The notes under the pieces are model-generated. The model made no database searches. It worked only from the letters and a program-made list of their open reading frames with translations, and was not told the origin of the DNA. From Patescibacteria group bacterium (GTDB taxonomy: Bacteria > Patescibacteriota > Patescibacteriia > 2-01-FULL-39-33), in contig JBAZRV010000007.1 in NCBI GenBank assembly GCA_041662745.1, positions 9,180 to 41,179 on the forward strand: a stretch of 32,000 bases of DNA. The letters run 5' to 3'. A program made the translations under genes and the position numbers. Shown here piece by piece: positions 7,832-23,699 of this stretch; position 1 is the first letter of the stretch; the number at the start of each line of letters is the position of its first letter.

Positions 7832-10540
7832 TTATAGGCCCTTAGCTTGACCGCGTAACTTCGCAAGCTTCTCTTCGGCAGCAGTCAATTTTTCTTTTTC
7901 TTTTTCCACTACCGCCTGAGGCGCATTTTTTACAAATTCCTCATTACCCATCTTGCCTTGCAAACCGCTTAAGTATTTTTCCGTCTCCGTAATTTCTTTA
8001 GCTAAACGCTCCTTTTCTGCTCCAATGTCAATCAGTCCGGTCAGGACTAAATAAATTTCCGCGCCCTCAATAACCTTGACAGCGGAATTTTCCGGCTTAG
8101 CGCCGGCGAAGCTAATCGTCAAATTCTCCAAACGCGCCAGGCGCTTGATAATTTCCGCTTGAGATTCCAATAATTCCTTTTTATCGCTAATAATTATCAC
8201 CTTAACCAGTTTGACCGGTTCAATTTTATTTTCCGCGCGCAGATTCCTAATTGCCGTAACTAATTCTTTGACAAGCCCAAAATCATTATTGCCTTCAATG
8301 CCGGATAAATGCGCGATCTCCTTGATCTTATCCCATAATTTTACTTCTCTGCCAACCGGCCATGGCTCCACCATCAACATCCTCCCCGCCGCCAGTTTGT
8401 CCCAGATCTCTTCAGTGACAAACGGCATATAAGGATGCCAAAGCTTCAGCAAGGTTTGCAGGGTATATAATAGTATTTCCTCTTTGTTGACTTTAGATTT
8501 TTGGCTTTCAATTTTATAAACTTCAAGATACCAATCGGCAAAATCGCTCCAAGTAAAATCATACAAAATCTCACTGGCCAAAGAGAATTCACAATTATCC
8601 AACTGTTTGGTGACTTCAGCGATTTTGACGCTTAGCCTGTCCAACAGCCAGTTATCGGCTAAGGTAATCGGTTCCGGCATTGTTTCCACTAACCTCGGAT
8701 TTTCCACGACAGATAAGATATAGCGGGAAATATTCCAAAATTTATTAACAAAGTTCCTGGCCGCTGCCACTTTTTCTTCATAAAACCTGGCATCGTTGCC
8801 GGCAGTCGTGCCTTTAATCAAGGATAAACGCAAGGCGTCAGTGCCGTACTGATCAATTATTTCCAGCGGATCCAAACCATTGCCCAATGATTTGGAAAAT
8901 TTGCGGCCGTCTTTGGCGCGCAGAATGCCGTGGATATAAACATTCTCAAACGGAATATCGTCCAGAGCGTAGGTGGTCATTAGTATCATTCTGGCCATCC
9001 AAAAAAACAAAATCTCATAGCCCATCTGCATCCAAGTGGTCGGATGATATTTTTTTAAATCAGCGGTTTGCTCCGGCCAACCTAAAGTGGAAAAAGTCCA
9101 AGCGCCCGAAGAAAACCAGGTATCCAAAGTATCCTCGTCCTGGCGCACCTGACCGCTGCCGCATTTTTCGCATTTATCCACTGATTTATCGGAATAAAAT
9201 ATCTCGCCGCAATCGTCACAATACCAGATCGGAATGCGATGCCCCCACCAAATCTGACGCGAAATGCACCAATCGCGCAGGTTATCAATCCAATACAAGT
9301 AAGTGTCGTGGAATCTTTCTGGCGTAATTTTAATAATTTTATTCTTATCATGATTATGGCCGACGGTTACGGCTTCACGCATCAAATCCTTCAAGGTTTT
9401 GTTGCGGCCGGGAATCTGCTTTTTCACGTCCACAAACCATTGATCCATGGGAAGCGCCTCAACTACATCGCCGAAACGATCCGATTTGCCCACATTATGT
9501 TCAACTTCCTCTTCTTTAATGTATAACTCATTGCTCTTCAGCCAAGCCACGAATTTTTCCCGCGCTTCGTTAACGGTCAGGCCTTCGTAATCTTTGCCCG
9601 CGGCCGGAAGCATGCGGCCGTCACGGCCGATAACCGGAATAATGCCGATATCTTTGTTTTGCTCATACATCTCAAAATCAATCTGGCTGTGCGCCGGCGT
9701 TACGCCGACCGCGCCCGTGCCGTAGTCAATGTCAACATTCTTATCGGCAATAATCGTAATCACCAGCGGCTTGGCCGCGCCCACATCCGCCGTAAATTTC
9801 TGGCCGATGTATTGCTTATACCTGTCATCTTTGGGACTAACCGCTACGGCCGTATCACCCAATTTTGTTTCCGGACGAGTCGTGGCGATAGCAATAGGAA
9901 AATCCTTGCTGTATTTAAAGGTATAGACCGTGGTCTTAACCGTTTCATAAACTAACTCGTCATCGGAACAAGTGGATTGCCCTTTGACCGACCAATTGAC
10001 TACGCGATAGCCGCGATAAATCAAGCCATCGGCGAACATCCTGCGAAACAGTTCATTGACTGCCTTGGTGCGCGGTTCGTCAAAAGTATAAGCCAAGCGC
10101 GACCAATCGCAAGACGTGCCCATTTTTTTTATCTGAGACAGAATGACTGATTTTTTTTCCTCGGCATACTCACGGATTTTTTTCAATAATTCTTCGCGAC
10201 CCAACTCCTGACGCGGATGCTTGATGCCTTGTTTCTTGAGTTCATCCTCCACCCTGGCCTGAGTAGCCACGGCCGCATGATCGGTGCCGGGCACCAGTAA
10301 CGCCCGCTTGCCCTTAAGCCGCTGATAGCGCAACTCAATATCCATAATGGAATTCTCCAAGGCATGCCCCAAATGCAGGACGCCGGTAACATTGGGCGGC
10401 GGCATGGAAACGACAAACTTTTCCGGCCGATTGCCGGGCAGATTGTCGGGATTAAAATAACCGGACTCCTCCCATTTGCGGTAGATTCCGTCTTCGACCG
10501 ATTTGGCGTCATACGCCTTGTCCAATTCGATTTTTAGCAT
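7832..10540 (-). CDS. valS: Valyl-tRNA synthetase
   Basis: 902 aa with PPPNVTGVLHLGHAL (HIGH), KFSKSLGN (KMSKS) and a C-terminal coiled coil, typical of ValRS. Confidence 0.95.
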   Translation of the reverse strand: MLKIELDKAYDAKSVEDGIYRKWEESGYFNPDNLPGNRPEKFVVSMPPPNVTGVLHLGHALENSIMDIELRYQRLKGKRALLVPGTDHAAVATQARVEDELKKQGIKHPRQELGREELLKKIREYAEEKKSVILSQIKKMGTSCDWSRLAYTFDEPRTKAVNELFRRMFADGLIYRGYRVVNWSVKGQSTCSDDELVYETVKTTVYTFKYSKDFPIAIATTRPETKLGDTAVAVSPKDDRYKQYIGQKFTADVGAAKPLVITIIADKNVDIDYGTGAVGVTPAHSQIDFEMYEQNKDIGIIPVIGRDGRMLPAAGKDYEGLTVNEAREKFVAWLKSNELYIKEEEVEHNVGKSDRFGDVVEALPMDQWFVDVKKQIPGRNKTLKDLMREAVTVGHNHDKNKIIKITPERFHDTYLYWIDNLRDWCISRQIWWGHRIPIWYCDDCGEIFYSDKSVDKCEKCGSGQVRQDEDTLDTWFSSGAWTFSTLGWPEQTADLKKYHPTTWMQMGYEILFFWMARMILMTTYALDDIPFENVYIHGILRAKDGRKFSKSLGNGLDPLEIIDQYGTDALRLSLIKGTTAGNDARFYEEKVAAARNFVNKFWNISRYILSVVENPRLVETMPEPITLADNWLLDRLSVKIAEVTKQLDNCEFSLASEILYDFTWSDFADWYLEVYKIESQKSKVNKEEILLYTLQTLLKLWHPYMPFVTEEIWDKLAAGRMLMVEPWPVGREVKLWDKIKEIAHLSGIEGNNDFGLVKELVTAIRNLRAENKIEPVKLVKVIIISDKKELLESQAEIIKRLARLENLTISFAGAKPENSAVKVIEGAEIYLVLTGLIDIGAEKERLAKEITETEKYLSGLQGKMGNEEFVKNAPQAVVEKEKEKLTAAEEKLAKLRGQAKGL

Positions 10541-18812: not shown

Positions 18813-19190
18813 TTATTTTAAATATTTTTTAATAACGTTTATCACATCAGCCGGAGTATGCTGCGCCTTGACAAAATATTCTTCGGCGCCCAGCTGCTGA
18901 CCCTTCTCCTGGTCGGATTCCTGACCCAAGTTAGTCATAATAATCGTTGGAATCTTTTTGGTTGCCGCTTCGCTCTTAAGCGAGCTAAGAATGGAAAAAC
19001 CATCAACTTCCGGCAGGATAATATCTAAGAGAATAATGTCCGGATCATCGGTTTTGGCCAGCTCAATCGCCTGGCTGCCCTTATCGGTTATAATGACTTC
19101 ATAACCCTCCTCCTCCAATCGCAATTTATACATATCCACGATCATGGCGTCATCTTCCACGAGCAGTACTTTAATTTTATCACCTGGCAT
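18813..19190 (-). CDS. Single-domain (CheY-like receiver) response regulator
   Basis: KVLLVEDD...DIILLDIILPEVDG...PTIIMTNLG...K. Start set to ATG 19190, because the tracked N-terminal 16 aa look artefactual. Confidence 0.88.
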   Translation of the reverse strand: MPGDKIKVLLVEDDAMIVDMYKLRLEEEGYEVIITDKGSQAIELAKTDDPDIILLDIILPEVDGFSILSSLKSEAATKKIPTIIMTNLGQESDQEKGQQLGAEEYFVKAQHTPADVINVIKKYLK

Positions 19191-19261
19191 AATAATAAAA
19201 ATTAGATTAATAATTAAACAACAAAGAAATCTTAACAAAAACCAACAATAAAGTCAAAAAA

Positions 19262-20152
19262 TCAATCAGCAAACATAAACTCCCGGCCGTCGCTGAATAA
19301 GCGAATATCGCCAGCCAAATCGGTACGAAAAATCTTAGCGCCCAACCGCTTCAAATAATACAGCGTACGGTAATGGGGATGGCCGTATTGATTGTCGGCG
19401 CCGACAGAAACTATTGCTAACTCCGGCGCTGCCGCCGACAAAAAACCCTTGTCATTGGCATTAGTTGAACCATGATGCCCGACTTTAAGCACGTCGGATT
19501 TAATCTGAACCATTGATTGCAACAATAGCCCCTCCTCATTTTCAAAATCTCCGGTATACAAAGCGGTGGTGGAGCCGTAAACCAATTTAAAAACGATGGA
19601 AGTATTATTAAGATTATCCGCATGTTCACCTTGCCAGTTTTTCTCCGGCGCCAGGAATTTCAATACCAAGCCGTCAATTGTTTCTTCTTGCGGTTGTTCA
19701 ATTATTTCCACTGGAATATCCTTCTCTTCAACCAGCCTTAAAAATTCCAAATAATCGGGCGCCGTATGGGTGACTCCGGTCATAATCACCTTGTTTACCT
19801 GATATCTCTTAAGGACTTCCACCAAGCCGGCGACGTGGTCAGAGTGCGGATGGCTCAAAATAACCGTCTCAATGGTCCGATCGGTCGGTGGCAAGTACTG
19901 GCCCAACCCGTACAGCACTTTATTATCGGGCCCGCCATCAACCAAGATATCTTCACCACCGGGAGTTATAATTAATGAGGCGTCCCCTTGCCCGACATCA
20001 AAAAATATCAATTCTAAAGACGAGGTGGAACGGATGTTAAAGGTTCCTAAAACGGCGCCGGTATGACGCTGGCAGAAATTAAAGCCGACTCCGGCCAATA
20101 ATAAAAAAATTATAACGAATCCGATTGAATATTTTATGCCTTTATTGGTCAT
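19262..20152 (-). CDS. ComEC-type metallo-beta-lactamase domain protein (membrane-anchored, stand-alone)
   Basis: N-terminal TM segment, then FFDVGQGDASLIITPGGEDILVDGG, SHPHSDHVAGL, VGHHGS and YGHPH, i.e. the C-terminal MBL domain of ComEC/Rec2. Confidence 0.85.
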   Translation of the reverse strand: MTNKGIKYSIGFVIIFLLLAGVGFNFCQRHTGAVLGTFNIRSTSSLELIFFDVGQGDASLIITPGGEDILVDGGPDNKVLYGLGQYLPPTDRTIETVILSHPHSDHVAGLVEVLKRYQVNKVIMTGVTHTAPDYLEFLRLVEEKDIPVEIIEQPQEETIDGLVLKFLAPEKNWQGEHADNLNNTSIVFKLVYGSTTALYTGDFENEEGLLLQSMVQIKSDVLKVGHHGSTNANDKGFLSAAAPELAIVSVGADNQYGHPHYRTLYYLKRLGAKIFRTDLAGDIRLFSDGREFMFAD

Positions 20153-20194
20153 GGATGAATTATAACATACCTAATAAAAAAATTTATAAAAACT

Positions 20195-20215
20195 AAAAAC
20201 CCCGAACTAACGGGG
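20195..20215 (-). terminator. Intrinsic terminator after the CARDB protein gene
   Basis: Minus strand reads CCCCG-TTAGTT-CGGGG followed by TTTTTAGTTTTT. Confidence 0.7.
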
Positions 20216-20243
20216 TTTGAAGGAATACTAAAAATGATGATTA

Positions 20244-21308
20244 TTACGGAACAACGGTAATATATTCAGAATAAGTATTGTTGTTTTCATTTACCTCCGC
20301 TAATTCGCTCGGCTCATCCGCCTTAGCGGTAAAGGTTTTCTTACCGCTGGCGATAAATTTGCCATTATAGGTTATCTCAAAAATCTGGCTGGTGCCAAGC
20401 GGTCTGGAGGCGGAAGGGTAATCGCCGTGATTTATAGTAGCCACGGTAAAATCTTGCCCGATAAAAGAAATATTACGCAGACCGGCCGAGGTCGTCAAAG
20501 CCGAACCGGTATTCTTAATTTGCAACACGACGTTATAATTGGTATTGACTTTAGGCTGCGAAGTGGGGAAAACAATATCGTAAACTATTAAATCTGGCTT
20601 AGTCGGAGAAACCGGGGTTAAATTGTAAACCAAACTGTAGAGGATGGACAAACCGCGTTCAGCCGCCGTAACCGAAGTCTTACCGCTAGCATAAGTCATG
20701 GTAGTCGGAACATCTTTGATAATTGAGCTTTCCTTATAACCATTAGCTTCAAAGCCGGCAGCGGTGACCTTTCTCTTGGCGCCGGCATCAATCAAATAAA
20801 TGTCTTTAGAACCAACATACTGGATTAAAGAACCGTCGGGCAACTTGGAAACGGAAGTAAGAATGCAAGAATTGTCTCTGATATAATCCGTCTCAAAAGA
20901 ACTTTGAATGATAATGGTACGCGACTGCCAATTATCTCCATACAGAGCGCGAACCTCGCACAGCACGCCGCCGGGAGTAACAGCAAAAACTTTGTTGCTG
21001 TTATCAAACTGCGCCAGATTGCTGCCCGGCCTGACTATGACATTCTTGCCATTATCAATCTGATCAAATTCATCTTGAGTAACAATTTTAATTTTTTGAT
21101 CCGACCAACCGCCGCTGTACCAAGTAAAAAAGGTGGCTTGATTGGAGAATAAATGACGCTTCAAATCATCATCAATAATATAAACCGCCGGACTGGACGC
21201 GGTTTTAATCAAATCGCCGGACATCGGTAAATAAGCGGCTCTCGCCGGCTTGCCGCTGCCGCCGACAATAATCAGGGCAATAGCTAAAATTAAAAATATT
21301 TTTTTCAT
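20244..21308 (-). CDS. Secreted protein with C-terminal CARDB-like domain
   Basis: Signal peptide MKKIFLILAIALIIVGGSGKPARA. C-terminus PDLIVYDIVFPTSQPKVNTNYNVVLQIKNTGS...EVNENNNTY fits the CARDB pattern. N-terminal part has repeated xYxIDxxxKR-type units. Confidence 0.75.
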   Translation of the reverse strand: MKKIFLILAIALIIVGGSGKPARAAYLPMSGDLIKTASSPAVYIIDDDLKRHLFSNQATFFTWYSGGWSDQKIKIVTQDEFDQIDNGKNVIVRPGSNLAQFDNSNKVFAVTPGGVLCEVRALYGDNWQSRTIIIQSSFETDYIRDNSCILTSVSKLPDGSLIQYVGSKDIYLIDAGAKRKVTAAGFEANGYKESSIIKDVPTTMTYASGKTSVTAAERGLSILYSLVYNLTPVSPTKPDLIVYDIVFPTSQPKVNTNYNVVLQIKNTGSALTTSAGLRNISFIGQDFTVATINHGDYPSASRPLGTSQIFEITYNGKFIASGKKTFTAKADEPSELAEVNENNNTYSEYITVVP

Positions 21309-21347
21309 ACTGCTGATATTTAACTACTAATAGTATAACATTTGATA

Positions 21348-21378
21348 TAAAAAATGCCAAACCCGGCGGGTTTGGCAT
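21348..21378 (-). terminator. Strong intrinsic terminator after the PilC-like ORF
   Basis: ATGCCAAACCCG / CGGGTTTGGCAT, 12-bp arms (21354-21378), followed on the minus strand by TTTTTTATATC. Confidence 0.85.
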
Positions 21379-21397
21379 TGAATTCAATGTTCAAAGT

Positions 21398-22054
21398 TTA
21401 CTTGAGATTAAAGCGACCGGATAACTGCGCCAAACGCGCCAATAGGTAATCAAGATTGCATTTTGTTTCGCAACTGTCAATGCCATCATCATCGGCAGGC
21501 AAATCCAAAAGGTCAGGTGAGAACCCGCTTTCGTTGGCATTAATCAGGCTGATTTCCATGGCAGAAAATTGTCCGGTTTCCGACATGGCCTCAGCGATAC
21601 TTCCGCCATCTTTGACAGAATCATGGATCTTTTCTGCCGCCTCCCGCAGTGGAGCATCCAATCGTTTTGAACTTTCTTTCAATGCTTGCAAAATAGGTAC
21701 ACCGAGAAAAAGCAACCTGCTTAAAATCTGATAAAAAGATTCATACTGATCAGCGCGGGAATAAATCGAGCCGTCGACAATGTAATGCATCGCCAAGGGC
21801 ATGGTTCCGCCGGTTTCTCCGCTTCTGACAGCGCACACTTCCAGATCTGAAAACATTGAAGACGCGCTTAAGGCCTTCGAAAAAGACAATCCCCCTCTAA
21901 CATCTTCAATGATTTTCTTAATACCGCGGTCAAAGTCATTAGTAGCGGATAATTGACTGTAAATAACGTTCAATGCTTGCATCAGTGTCAAATTCAAGTC
22001 CAATAAATTTGCCAGATCAAACCAAAACATCCGATATTGCATGGCTCGTGTCAT
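21398..22054 (-). CDS. Soluble tandem T2SSF-domain protein (PilC/GspF cytoplasmic domains without TM segments)
   Basis: Two repeats match the platform-protein signature. Repeat 1: FWFDLANLLDLNLTLMQAL...DVRGGLSFSKAL...VRSGETGG. Repeat 2: FYQILSRLLFLGVPILQAL...SVKDGGSIAEAM...INANESG. No hydrophobic stretch is long enough for a TM helix. SD AAAGGAGG 6 nt upstream. Confidence 0.7.
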   Translation of the reverse strand: MTRAMQYRMFWFDLANLLDLNLTLMQALNVIYSQLSATNDFDRGIKKIIEDVRGGLSFSKALSASSMFSDLEVCAVRSGETGGTMPLAMHYIVDGSIYSRADQYESFYQILSRLLFLGVPILQALKESSKRLDAPLREAAEKIHDSVKDGGSIAEAMSETGQFSAMEISLINANESGFSPDLLDLPADDDGIDSCETKCNLDYLLARLAQLSGRFNLK

Positions 22055-22166
22055 GATTATCCTCCTTTTTGCCCAGCCATAGATTGACGTGGGCGGTTGA
22101 AGTTGTAAAGTGCCTGAATTAAAACTAAATCATTCCTCTATAATTGTCAATAAAGCTATAAAAATA

Positions 22167-23699
22167 CTAAAGTTTATTATTCTGTCGCCAAATAAAACAA
22201 AATAACAAAAAATAAAAAATAATCAATGCCGGCAGACCAAAGCCAGCCAACTCAACAGAACTCAAAGGCAAGGAATCAATTAAACGGGAAACTGTTAGCC
22301 AATATTGAACCGCTAACCAAGTCAGCCAACCAATCATTTTTCCAAGAGCGGGGAAAATTGCTCCCGCAATCGCATTAATCAAACTCAAGATCATTAACGG
22401 CGGAATGATCGGCAAGATTAGCAAATTAGCCGGCAGAGACAATAGAGACAAACGGCCGAAATAGTATAAAATTAACGGCAGAGTGGAAAGCTGAGCGCTG
22501 CCGGTAGTCAAAACTATTTCCTTGATTTGCCAAAATTCCGGCCAATCTTTAAAATACCGCTTAATGATCGGCAATAAGTAACCCAATCCCAAGACTGAAG
22601 CGAAAGATAATTGGAAACCAACGTCATCAAGCAAGGTGAAAGGATTGAACAACAGCATAATTGCGGCAGTGCAAGCCAAAATGTTTTTTATTCCGGTCAA
22701 TCGTCCTAAGGCCGTAGCATAAAGCGCCGCTAACGCCATGATCGCCGATCGTACGGCCGAAGCCGGGGCGCCGACCAGAATCACATAGCCGGCAATGATA
22801 AAGACCGAAGGCCAAAAAGTTTTCTGGCGCCGGACGCCAAAAGCGATAAGCAAATTCAAAATAATGGCAAAAACAACAACCAAATGCGAACCGGAAACGG
22901 CAATTATATGTGTTAAGCCCAAATTAGCGAATATCACGCCGTAAAATTCCGGTATGCCGCGGCTATCGCCGAGGATGATGCCTCTGATAATTGAGGCTTG
23001 CGGTTCGGATAAGGAGCTGTTAATACCCCGAGTTAGCCAGGATTTCAAATGGCCGATATGCCCCAAAACCGACAAGCCGCTTGGCGGAGCCAAGGACTTT
23101 ACTTCAGCCAAAACACAAGCAACAAAAACCCCATCCTTCCGTAGATACCTGGCGTAATCAAAGTCATCAATCATCCCCGGACGGATTAAGCGACAACTGA
23201 CTGCGACCTTTTCGGCCAATTGCCATTCCGGATATAAATCAGTTTTAACCGCTACTCTATCGACTACCGGCCGATTTCTTACTTCTAACGCCGGTGAAAA
23301 ATCCGGGGTCGCCCTAATTAAATAACCCGCCTTAACTGTCAGCTTCTGACTGTCAACGGTTTTATCAACGCGAACAATCCGGCCGATGAATTCCACTGTG
23401 GATGAAGCATAACCGCTCAATCTTTCCGGTTGATTATATTTGGGCAAAGCCGAAACGCAACGCCACCAGCCAAAAATTAAAAAAAATAAAAATAATAAAA
23501 AAACAAGCAATTGGCCGTTGGCTTCATTTACCGGCTTTTTGTTCCTGATTCCAAAACCCAGAACAAAAACCGAAAACAATACGGTCAACCCCAGACAGAA
23601 AAGCCAAAAGGCCGAAAAAATAAAAAAATTACCGAAAAATATTCCGGCAATAAAAGAGAGACAGGAAAAAAATAATAACTGAGCGCGGCTTAGCGGCAT
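22167..23699 (-). CDS. comEC: ComEC/Rec2 DNA-uptake channel (DUF4131/OB + competence domain, lacking the MBL domain)
   Basis: 510 aa, polytopic. GLTHIIAVSGSHLVV is a competence-domain motif, and an N-terminal OB-like region lies between TM helices. Start overlaps the prfB stop (TAATG). Confidence 0.85.
   Translation of the reverse strand: MPLSRAQLLFFSCLSFIAGIFFGNFFIFSAFWLFCLGLTVLFSVFVLGFGIRNKKPVNEANGQLLVFLLFLFFLIFGWWRCVSALPKYNQPERLSGYASSTVEFIGRIVRVDKTVDSQKLTVKAGYLIRATPDFSPALEVRNRPVVDRVAVKTDLYPEWQLAEKVAVSCRLIRPGMIDDFDYARYLRKDGVFVACVLAEVKSLAPPSGLSVLGHIGHLKSWLTRGINSSLSEPQASIIRGIILGDSRGIPEFYGVIFANLGLTHIIAVSGSHLVVVFAIILNLLIAFGVRRQKTFWPSVFIIAGYVILVGAPASAVRSAIMALAALYATALGRLTGIKNILACTAAIMLLFNPFTLLDDVGFQLSFASVLGLGYLLPIIKRYFKDWPEFWQIKEIVLTTGSAQLSTLPLILYYFGRLSLLSLPANLLILPIIPPLMILSLINAIAGAIFPALGKMIGWLTWLAVQYWLTVSRLIDSLPLSSVELAGFGLPALIIFYFLLFCFIWRQNNKL

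Follow-up and report, generated by a model that had tools for sequence, protein, structure and literature searches.

T2SSFshort, a protein of 218 amino acids (aa), is a soluble copy of both cytoplasmic bundles (Cyto1 and Cyto2) of PilC, the platform protein of type IV pili, joined by a short linker. It is encoded in a stretch of 32,000 nucleotides (hereafter the window; positions 9,180 to 41,179 of contig JBAZRV010000007.1, assembly GCA_041662745.1) from a small uncultured groundwater-type bacterium of the Patescibacteria, whose genome (G000) comprises 1.02 Mb in 10 contigs and is 98% complete. Lost relative to PilC are the N-domain and the three membrane segments, and hence the proposed ion channel and any pilin contact. 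As a natural soluble variant of the well-known T2SSF family (PF00482) the architecture is new within the literature that was searched, in which no description of a natural soluble or transmembrane-less PilC/GspF was found.

To judge from its conservation across genomes, the gene is a real, expressed-looking and selectively maintained paralogue of pilC. The gene is accessory, evolves fast and forms a unit by itself, which has come to lie at different loci. Here we present the domain content and predicted structure of the protein, together with a description of its gene, family and genomic setting and a proposal for its function.

Domain content and predicted structure

The gene and the parts of its product are located as follows.

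21398..22054, minus strand: coding sequence of T2SSFshort, the soluble tandem-T2SSF protein; ATG-initiated open reading frame of 218 codons
21770..22033, minus strand: repeat 1, a Cyto1-type six-helix bundle, residues ~8-95
21419..21742, minus strand: repeat 2, a Cyto2-type bundle, residues ~105-212
21455..21523, minus strand: acidic insert of ~22 aa, SGFSPDLLDLPADDDGIDSCETKC, residues ~178-200, within the GE..G..L loop of repeat 2

An earlier reading of the window, made from the sequence only, had described the product as the two cytoplasmic domains of a PilC/GspF protein with no transmembrane segments, and both parts of this description were borne out. The protein matches the Pfam profile T2SSF (PF00482) in two stretches with E=2.1e-22 and 79.9 bits, above the gathering cut-off of 25.2 bits. 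In the whole-genome search these stretches span 1-74 and 5-85 of a profile that is 125 positions long, and the partial coverage means that in each case the helical bundle is present without the membrane helix that closes a T2SSF unit. Alignment to the NCBIfam models identifies the first stretch as Cyto1 (residues 9-91 on PilC 70-152) and the second as Cyto2 (residues 107-189 on GspF 271-355); the first residue corresponds to PilC residue ~70, and the PilC N-domain is missing. All NCBIfam equivalog cut-offs are missed, with scores of 70.4 versus 424 for GspF (TIGR02120), 55.2 versus 700 for PilC (NF052606/7) and 20.5 versus 240 for ComGB (NF041012).

A profile built from the close homologues matches the PilC protein of M. 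xanthus twice and colinearly (10-126 on PilC 83-203, and 106-190 on 285-370), and the same profile matches the crystallized N-terminal cytoplasmic domain of T. thermophilus PilC (2WHN) with E=2.6e-17. The two repeats, separated by a linker of ~10 residues, are also colinear with the genome's own PilC encoded on contig C2, repeat 1 sharing 36% identity with its residues 69-154 and repeat 2 sharing 31% identity with its residues 273-356.

No membrane helix was detected in T2SSFshort in a Kyte-Doolittle scan with a window of 19 residues. The maximum, 1.46, was scored by the first amphipathic helix in repeat 2, versus three segments at 2.3-3.4 in each of the two full-length PilC proteins of the genome and values of 2.5-3.7 in full-length PilC proteins of the sequence library. 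The transmembrane segments TMS1-3 of PilC/GspF are thus missing, together with the channel residues that they carry. Because the intergenic gaps around the gene measure only 112 bp upstream and 89 bp downstream and hold expression signals only, there is no nearby sequence able to encode the lost membrane segments.

An AlphaFold2 (AF2) model, computed on a family alignment of 34 sequences, is all-helical from residue 3 and consists of twelve helices, six per repeat (pLDDT 93.4, pTM 0.88). The sole part modelled with low confidence comprises residues ~178-200 (pLDDT ~61-63). In a Foldseek search against the PDB all high-probability matches were cytoplasmic domains of platform proteins. The match to PilC 2WHN (TMt 0.77-0.81, rmsd 1.5 Å, 36% identity) was accompanied by OutF (5NBG), TcpE (4HHX) and EpsF (3C1Q/2VMA/2VMB), and SpoIIIAB was matched more weakly with a TMt of ~0.5. 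Comparison with structures of the PilC N-terminal domain had been proposed along with the earlier description, and each half of the model superposes on domains of the 2WHN type.

T2SSFshort is homologous to the platform proteins PilC, GspF, PulF and ComGB, with which it shares the succession of Cyto1 and Cyto2, the hydrophobic core and two conserved motifs, the G-x-P turn and the GE..G.L loop. It differs from them in its lack of an N-domain and of TMS1-3, including the Tyr-Pro and Glu-Pro channel residues reported from PulF (PMC10790770), in its position outside a pilus cluster, in being accessory rather than essential, and in a set of family-specific substitutions. The N-domain (beta-beta-alpha-beta) is dispensable in PulF, and ComGB was reported to be without it. 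T2SSFshort thus belongs to the T2SSF superfamily, yet it lacks the features that define a platform protein, namely membrane segments, channel residues, location in a pilus cluster and equivalog scores.

Each half of the model also superposes on the isolated Cyto1 constructs of PilC (2WHN), EpsF of V. cholerae (3C1Q/2VMA/2VMB), OutF of D. dadantii (5NBG) and TcpE of V. cholerae (4HHX) with TMt values of 0.66-0.81, rmsd values of 1.5-2.8 Å and at most 36% identity. Those constructs are laboratory truncations of membrane proteins, whereas T2SSFshort holds both domains naturally in one soluble chain. TadB and TadC of Tad pili, as well as SpoIIIAB, resemble it as T2SSF-fold proteins with a non-canonical domain count; they are membrane proteins and parts of their machines. 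To our knowledge none of the three contains a tandem of two Cyto domains. TadB and TadC have one Cyto domain each (PMC10790770).

Gene, family and origin

The signals that flank the coding sequence are listed below.

22061..22067, minus strand: Shine-Dalgarno sequence AAGGAGG of T2SSFshort, 6 nt before the ATG, read from the sequence
21353..21379, minus strand: intrinsic-terminator-like hairpin with a 12-bp stem, 6 G-C pairs, followed by a T-run; closes the comEC/T2SSFshort unit
22145..22150, minus strand: TTGACA, a putative -35-like hexamer, read from the sequence

A strong Shine-Dalgarno sequence and a strong terminator had been claimed for the gene, and both stood up to comparison: a sequence of the AAGGAG type, 5-8 nt upstream of the start, is kept in ten of ten orthologues examined, across three different loci, and a hairpin followed by a T-run lies downstream of the same number (10/10). 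The claim of an own promoter held in part. The TTGACA element at 22150-22145 is perfect, but the best -10 sequence at a distance of 17 nt is TAGTTT with a match of 3/6, and the element upstream of T2SSFshort was not called in a promoter scan of the window. No terminator was found in the interval between comEC, the upstream gene, and T2SSFshort, so that the comEC transcript may extend into the latter, in addition to any transcript from a promoter of its own; co-transcription with comEC is as possible as an own promoter.

T2SSFshort occurs in 8 of the 34 species (GTDB species genomes) and in 3 of the 19 genera of one Buchananbacteria-like family, the orthologue records carrying the name Candidatus Buchananbacteria. 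Besides these 8 genomes it was found on independent metagenome contigs from JGI, ENA and Logan. The orthologues are 189-226 aa long, share the conserved start MTRAxQY and are labelled in the databases as 'type II secretion system F family protein' or 'PulF'. Outside the family a comparable protein, a membrane-less variant of 258 aa with a basic linker, is encoded in one of 389 class-level genomes, and in a phylum-wide sample T2SSFshort was present in none of 400 genomes. A search of genome contigs for relatives delivered mostly full-length PilC, matched via the motif GVPILQALK. A phage or defence origin was rejected, as T2SSFshort has no match in PHROG, PADLOC, IMG/VR or BFVD.

An exhaustive search with a profile hidden Markov model of 196 positions, made over 1.84 billion protein representatives and clustered at 50% identity, delivered ~32 clusters of proteins of 189-233 aa that cover the whole profile in a single stretch. 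Typical PilC proteins of 400 aa match it in two separated stretches and rank under the short proteins. In the hydropathy profiles of the short family proteins no hydrophobic segment was found.

In a domain tree of 120 Cyto domains (89 columns, quick search) the split between Cyto1 and Cyto2 received an SH-aLRT support of 95. Repeat 1 of the window protein and of 21 other short proteins forms a single clade with a support of 99 on the Cyto1 side (the core clade, 22 proteins), and repeat 2 of the same proteins falls on the Cyto2 side. The placement of repeat 1 with Cyto1 and of repeat 2 with Cyto2 indicates descent from a full-length PilC and not the duplication of one domain. The core clade arose once, by loss of the N-domain and TMS1-3 from a full-length PilC in the Buchananbacteria-like family.

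Further membrane-less tandems have origins of their own. P0037, P0078, P0114 and P0096 branch from within full-length PilC proteins, and P0042, P0162 and P0196 carry two Cyto2-like repeats. The public library also contains proteins that have three or four cytoplasmic T2SSF repeats and are likewise membrane-less (P0046, P0065, P0070, P0154, P0026 and P0029); two-repeat and three-repeat forms would either of them tile a six-fold partner. A contig of the Parcubacteria (L128:6179-7603) carries two adjacent T2SSF tandem genes, encoding proteins of 266 aa and 200 aa (P0096). The 266-aa protein has one weakly hydrophobic N-terminal segment (1.98), a possible membrane anchor, and P0096 has none.

Locus and genomic setting

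The window neighbours of T2SSFshort are prfB, comEC, a CARDB gene, a metallo-beta-lactamase (MBL) gene, a response regulator gene and ndk, which is not a pilus cluster. Three of them bear on its setting.

22167..23699, minus strand: gene of the ComEC channel (DUF4131 + Competence, 510 aa, without MBL domain), upstream neighbour; Pfam Competence E=2.5e-52
20244..21308, minus strand: secreted CARDB-domain protein, 354 aa, downstream neighbour; Pfam CARDB E=1.8e-10
19262..20152, minus strand: ComEC-type MBL as a separate gene, 296 aa, two genes downstream of T2SSFshort; Pfam Lactamase_B E=6e-16

The core-clade members are found in three syntenic locus classes only. In genus g1, to which the window belongs (9 species), the order prfB-comEC-(variable interval)-MBL-response regulator-ndk is fixed. 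The interval is empty in G004 and G005, where the MBL gene directly follows comEC, holds the CARDB gene only in G003, G007 and G008, and holds T2SSFshort plus the CARDB gene in G000, G001, G002 and G006. The CARDB gene is thus itself accessory (7/9 species), and the order comEC-T2SSFshort-CARDB recurs on independent metagenome contigs. The gap between comEC and the MBL gene (window positions 20153-22166; also L137-L141, L143 and L123) is a nested presence/absence site within g1. In genus g14 the order is dksA-lspA-(T2SSFshort)-comM, with lspA-comM lacking T2SSFshort in one species and extra DNA on both sides of the gene in another. In genus g8 T2SSFshort follows a Mur ligase gene, and comM lies elsewhere. 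The domains of the g14 neighbour (Mg-chelatase/YifB) are those of ComM, a hexameric helicase with a role in natural transformation.

Two further observations concern these neighbours. On a congener contig (L013:450-3013) the gene of a 514-aa large serine recombinase abuts a 5'-shortened comEC (350 versus 510 aa) near the contig end, and a mobile element may have been inserted into comEC there. The single-domain response regulator that follows the MBL gene in the window (18813-19238, minus strand) shares 47% identity with the response regulator encoded between PilB and PilT on contig C2.

T2SSFshort is the fastest-evolving protein of the neighbourhood, with 65% identity between G000 and its congener G001 compared to 75% for ComEC, 82% for MBL, 90% for CARDB, 92% for PrfB, 94% for NDK and 96% for the response regulator. 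The orthologues in g14 are 44-52% identical, versus ~80% for ComM and DksA. Between G000 and G001 dN is 0.25 and dS ~1.5, giving a dN/dS of ~0.17, with dS near saturation.

The position of T2SSFshort inside a DNA-uptake locus, as claimed before, stands as far as map position is concerned, with comEC upstream and the MBL gene two genes downstream. It is weaker evidence than it appears, since the gene is a presence/absence insertion found in four of the nine g1 species. Two of the three locus classes adjoin transformation genes, and the siting beside comEC in g1 and beside comM in g14 suggests that the process being tuned is transformation, an association recognized post hoc. The com genes and type IV pili form the DNA-uptake system of Patescibacteria (PMC10633639). 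No clear match to ComEA was obtained in the source genome, where a lone HHH_3 match stayed under the cut-off.

Full-length pilC, pilB and pilT genes, which the sequence-only reading had advised to look for, are present in the genome. Contig C2 carries a complete pilus cluster with PilM, PilB, a response regulator, PilT, a PilC of 403 aa, pilins and PilD. Contig C5 carries a second cluster with PilB, a PilC of 355 aa and pilins, and contig C4 carries a lone PilT. The ATPase genes of these contigs are located at C2:18444-20213 for PilB and C2:20622-21686 for PilT, at C5:69173-70891 for the second PilB and at C4:112481-113503 for the lone PilT. Because two full-length PilC proteins are retained, T2SSFshort is a third T2SSF paralogue, surplus to the platform function. 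In addition, a single open reading frame on C1 (128536-131667, plus strand) encodes a protein of 1043 aa with two complete tandem T2SSE domains of the PilB/PilT type and Walker A motifs at 351 and 793. This fused double ATPase occurs in nine of nine g1 species and in two other genera, the remaining genera of the family having only a single version of ~570 aa. As an orphan partner of T2SSFshort it was rejected, because it is present in all g1 species with or without the gene.

Proposed function and its alternatives

PilC and GspF contact the hexamer of PilB, PilT or GspE via their cytoplasmic side (PMC10790770, PMC11656802). In an AlphaFold2-multimer model of PulE6:PulF3, the Cyto1 and Cyto2 domains of the trimer alternate in a ring of six, and each of them binds one N2D domain of the ATPase alike (PMC10790770). 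By analogy, T2SSFshort could be an ATPase-binding modulator of the pilus or DNA-uptake motor, a reading that we put forward tentatively and consider quite possible. The earlier reading had suggested an adaptor or a competitive regulator of the PilB/PilT-type ATPases, which is plausible. As the Cyto domains of PilC/GspF contact the ATPase hexamer, the most likely binding site would be the N2D face of a T2SSE-family ATPase, with two PilB, two PilT and one fused double ATPase as candidates in the genome. A trimer of T2SSFshort would offer six Cyto domains, and it would occupy or cap the motor in competition with the membrane-bound PilC, acting in the simplest version as a platform decoy. The extension or retraction of pili would be damped or gated, and with it the DNA uptake that depends on them. 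Since T2SSFshort has no means of passing force to the membrane, it would act as a regulator.

Small soluble regulators of PilB, namely PilZ/FimX and the phage proteins Aqs1, Tip and Zip, bind the motor ATPase and change piliation (PMC11656802, PMC13436744). The likeness to T2SSFshort lies in the proposed mode of action only. There is no kinship in sequence or fold, and T2SSFshort would act by resembling the motor's own platform.

Two other membrane-less tandems lend indirect support to an ATPase as partner. P0196, a Cyto2-Cyto2 tandem of 195 aa, is followed on two complete contigs by the gene of an HTH_17-T2SSE ATPase of 505 aa, and on a third contig by a cut-off gene in the ATPase position; the arrangement looks like a soluble platform/ATPase pair. 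These loci (L125:1928-4303 and L126:2012-4387) belong to an unrelated organism, and their neighbours include heparinase-like and peptidase S15 genes. P0073, a metagenomic protein of 346 aa, joins a membrane-less pair of T2SSF domains to a PilB-type N2D, where the protein ends, either complete or cut by the contig. The fused part aligns to residues 200-298 of the genome's PilB, which correspond to N2D and lie just before the Walker A motif at 338.

The core of PilC is kept in both repeats across the family (F3, L7, G14, P16, L21, G47, F60 and G71-E72-x-x-G75-x-L77). Family members are more acidic than the Cyto domains of PilC, with median net charges of -2.2 and -5.4 versus -1.1 and -2.1, as is expected once the membrane-facing side is lost.

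Several observations weigh against an ATPase as the partner. In both repeats the PilC signature F-[TS]-R-[QT]-L is replaced by F-[WY]-x-x-L, and F-P-x-x-V (Cyto2) or F-x-x-x-Y (Cyto1) is replaced by F-S-x-x-E, whose glutamate (E64) is invariant in repeat 1 and 82% conserved in repeat 2. Because positions conserved in PilC are replaced, T2SSFshort is not a plain copy of the PilC surface, and its diverged surface may serve a partner other than that of PilC. The window copy is itself divergent. The G-x-P turn of repeat 1 reads N-L-T (G14N, P16T), repeat 2 carries G71N, and the acidic insert, which is restricted to the window protein and its closest relatives (P0003, the G001 orthologue), adds further degeneracy. 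No ATPase gene was found beside core-clade members at the loci examined, and the presence of T2SSFshort across the family shows no pattern with the number or kind of T2SSE paralogues. According to the domain tree, the tandems of P0196 and P0073 arose independently of the core clade. Finally, T2SSFshort is an indel at sites that take other accessory genes too, and its adjacency to comEC and comM could be chance; a rough post hoc estimate puts ~5% of random sites beside a competence gene.

An unlikely alternative is that of a coupling adaptor with a positive action, in which the Cyto1-Cyto2 protein would attach a hexameric motor, which may be the ComM helicase or a PilT/PilB-type ATPase, to ComEC at its cytoplasmic face and would thereby serve ComEC in the way that the Cyto domains serve the membrane part of PilC. 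In all g1 genomes and contigs that have it, down to 38% identity, T2SSFshort closes the comEC unit without an intervening terminator, and it sits between LspA and ComM in g14. ComEC without an MBL domain implies an importer locus that is already split and multi-subunit. No clear ComEA was found, and the com machinery is atypical. However, five of the nine g1 species have ComEC and MBL without T2SSFshort and one g14 species has LspA-ComM without it, which makes the protein dispensable for ComEC and ComM. The g8 copy lies beside the Mur ligase gene far from comM, and ComM is outside the T2SSE family of ATPases.

Similarly unlikely is a neofunctionalised helical scaffold, which after the loss of the membrane part would have kept the fold and acquired a new partner unrelated to T2SSE ATPases. 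The residues W/Y at position 4, S61 and E64, which replace PilC-conserved residues in both repeats, are in line with this explanation, as are an evolution faster than that of every neighbour (65% versus 75-96% identity; in g14 44-52% versus ~80%), the lack of an ATPase neighbour and the lack of co-occurrence with any ATPase paralogue. Against it, both repeats throughout the family keep the motifs most conserved in PilC (G-x-P turn, GE..G.L loop, core F and L residues), and other membrane-less tandems are physically linked to T2SSE modules. That the substitutions are identical in the two repeats is easier to reconcile with a symmetric, repeated partner (a hexamer, for example) than with a single new ligand.

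A long shot is a ring of six soluble Cyto domains, built as a trimer of two-repeat or a dimer of three-repeat proteins, that would dock a PilT/PilB-type ATPase or ComM under ComEC and so supply the motor coupling for DNA import in bacteria without ComFA. Such rings would constitute a class of their own among the cytoplasmic partners of hexameric motors.

A remnant, an assembly artefact or a fragment of a disrupted full-length pilC is very improbable, even though the window copy lacks the G-x-P turn in repeat 1 and has an insert in a conserved loop of repeat 2, and the gene is missing from most relatives. A pilC fragment or pseudogene was rejected, because length (189-226 aa in the genomes of 8 species and in independent contigs from JGI, ENA and Logan), start, Shine-Dalgarno sequence, terminator and synteny are kept, dN/dS is ~0.17, the AF2 model is confident, ~32 clusters share the architecture, and the flanking gaps are too short to encode the missing parts.

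The possible role as an ATPase-binding modulator concerns a step, the engagement of PilC by PilB and PilT, that is among the least understood in the assembly of type IV pili, type II secretion systems and competence pili. Full-length PilC is a difficult membrane protein, and the picture of a trimer whose six Cyto domains contact N2D is derived largely from AlphaFold models (PMC10790770). A naturally soluble Cyto1-Cyto2 protein, together with its ATPase-fused and ATPase-adjacent relatives, offers a tractable handle on this motor-platform interface. For genes of this kind the labels 'type II secretion system F family protein' and 'PulF' wrongly imply a membrane platform. If the platform decoy is true, it would represent a new principle, in which a part of a machine has been turned into the machine's own inhibitor, and it would do so in Patescibacteria, which rely on pili and DNA uptake for their lifestyle (PMC10633639).

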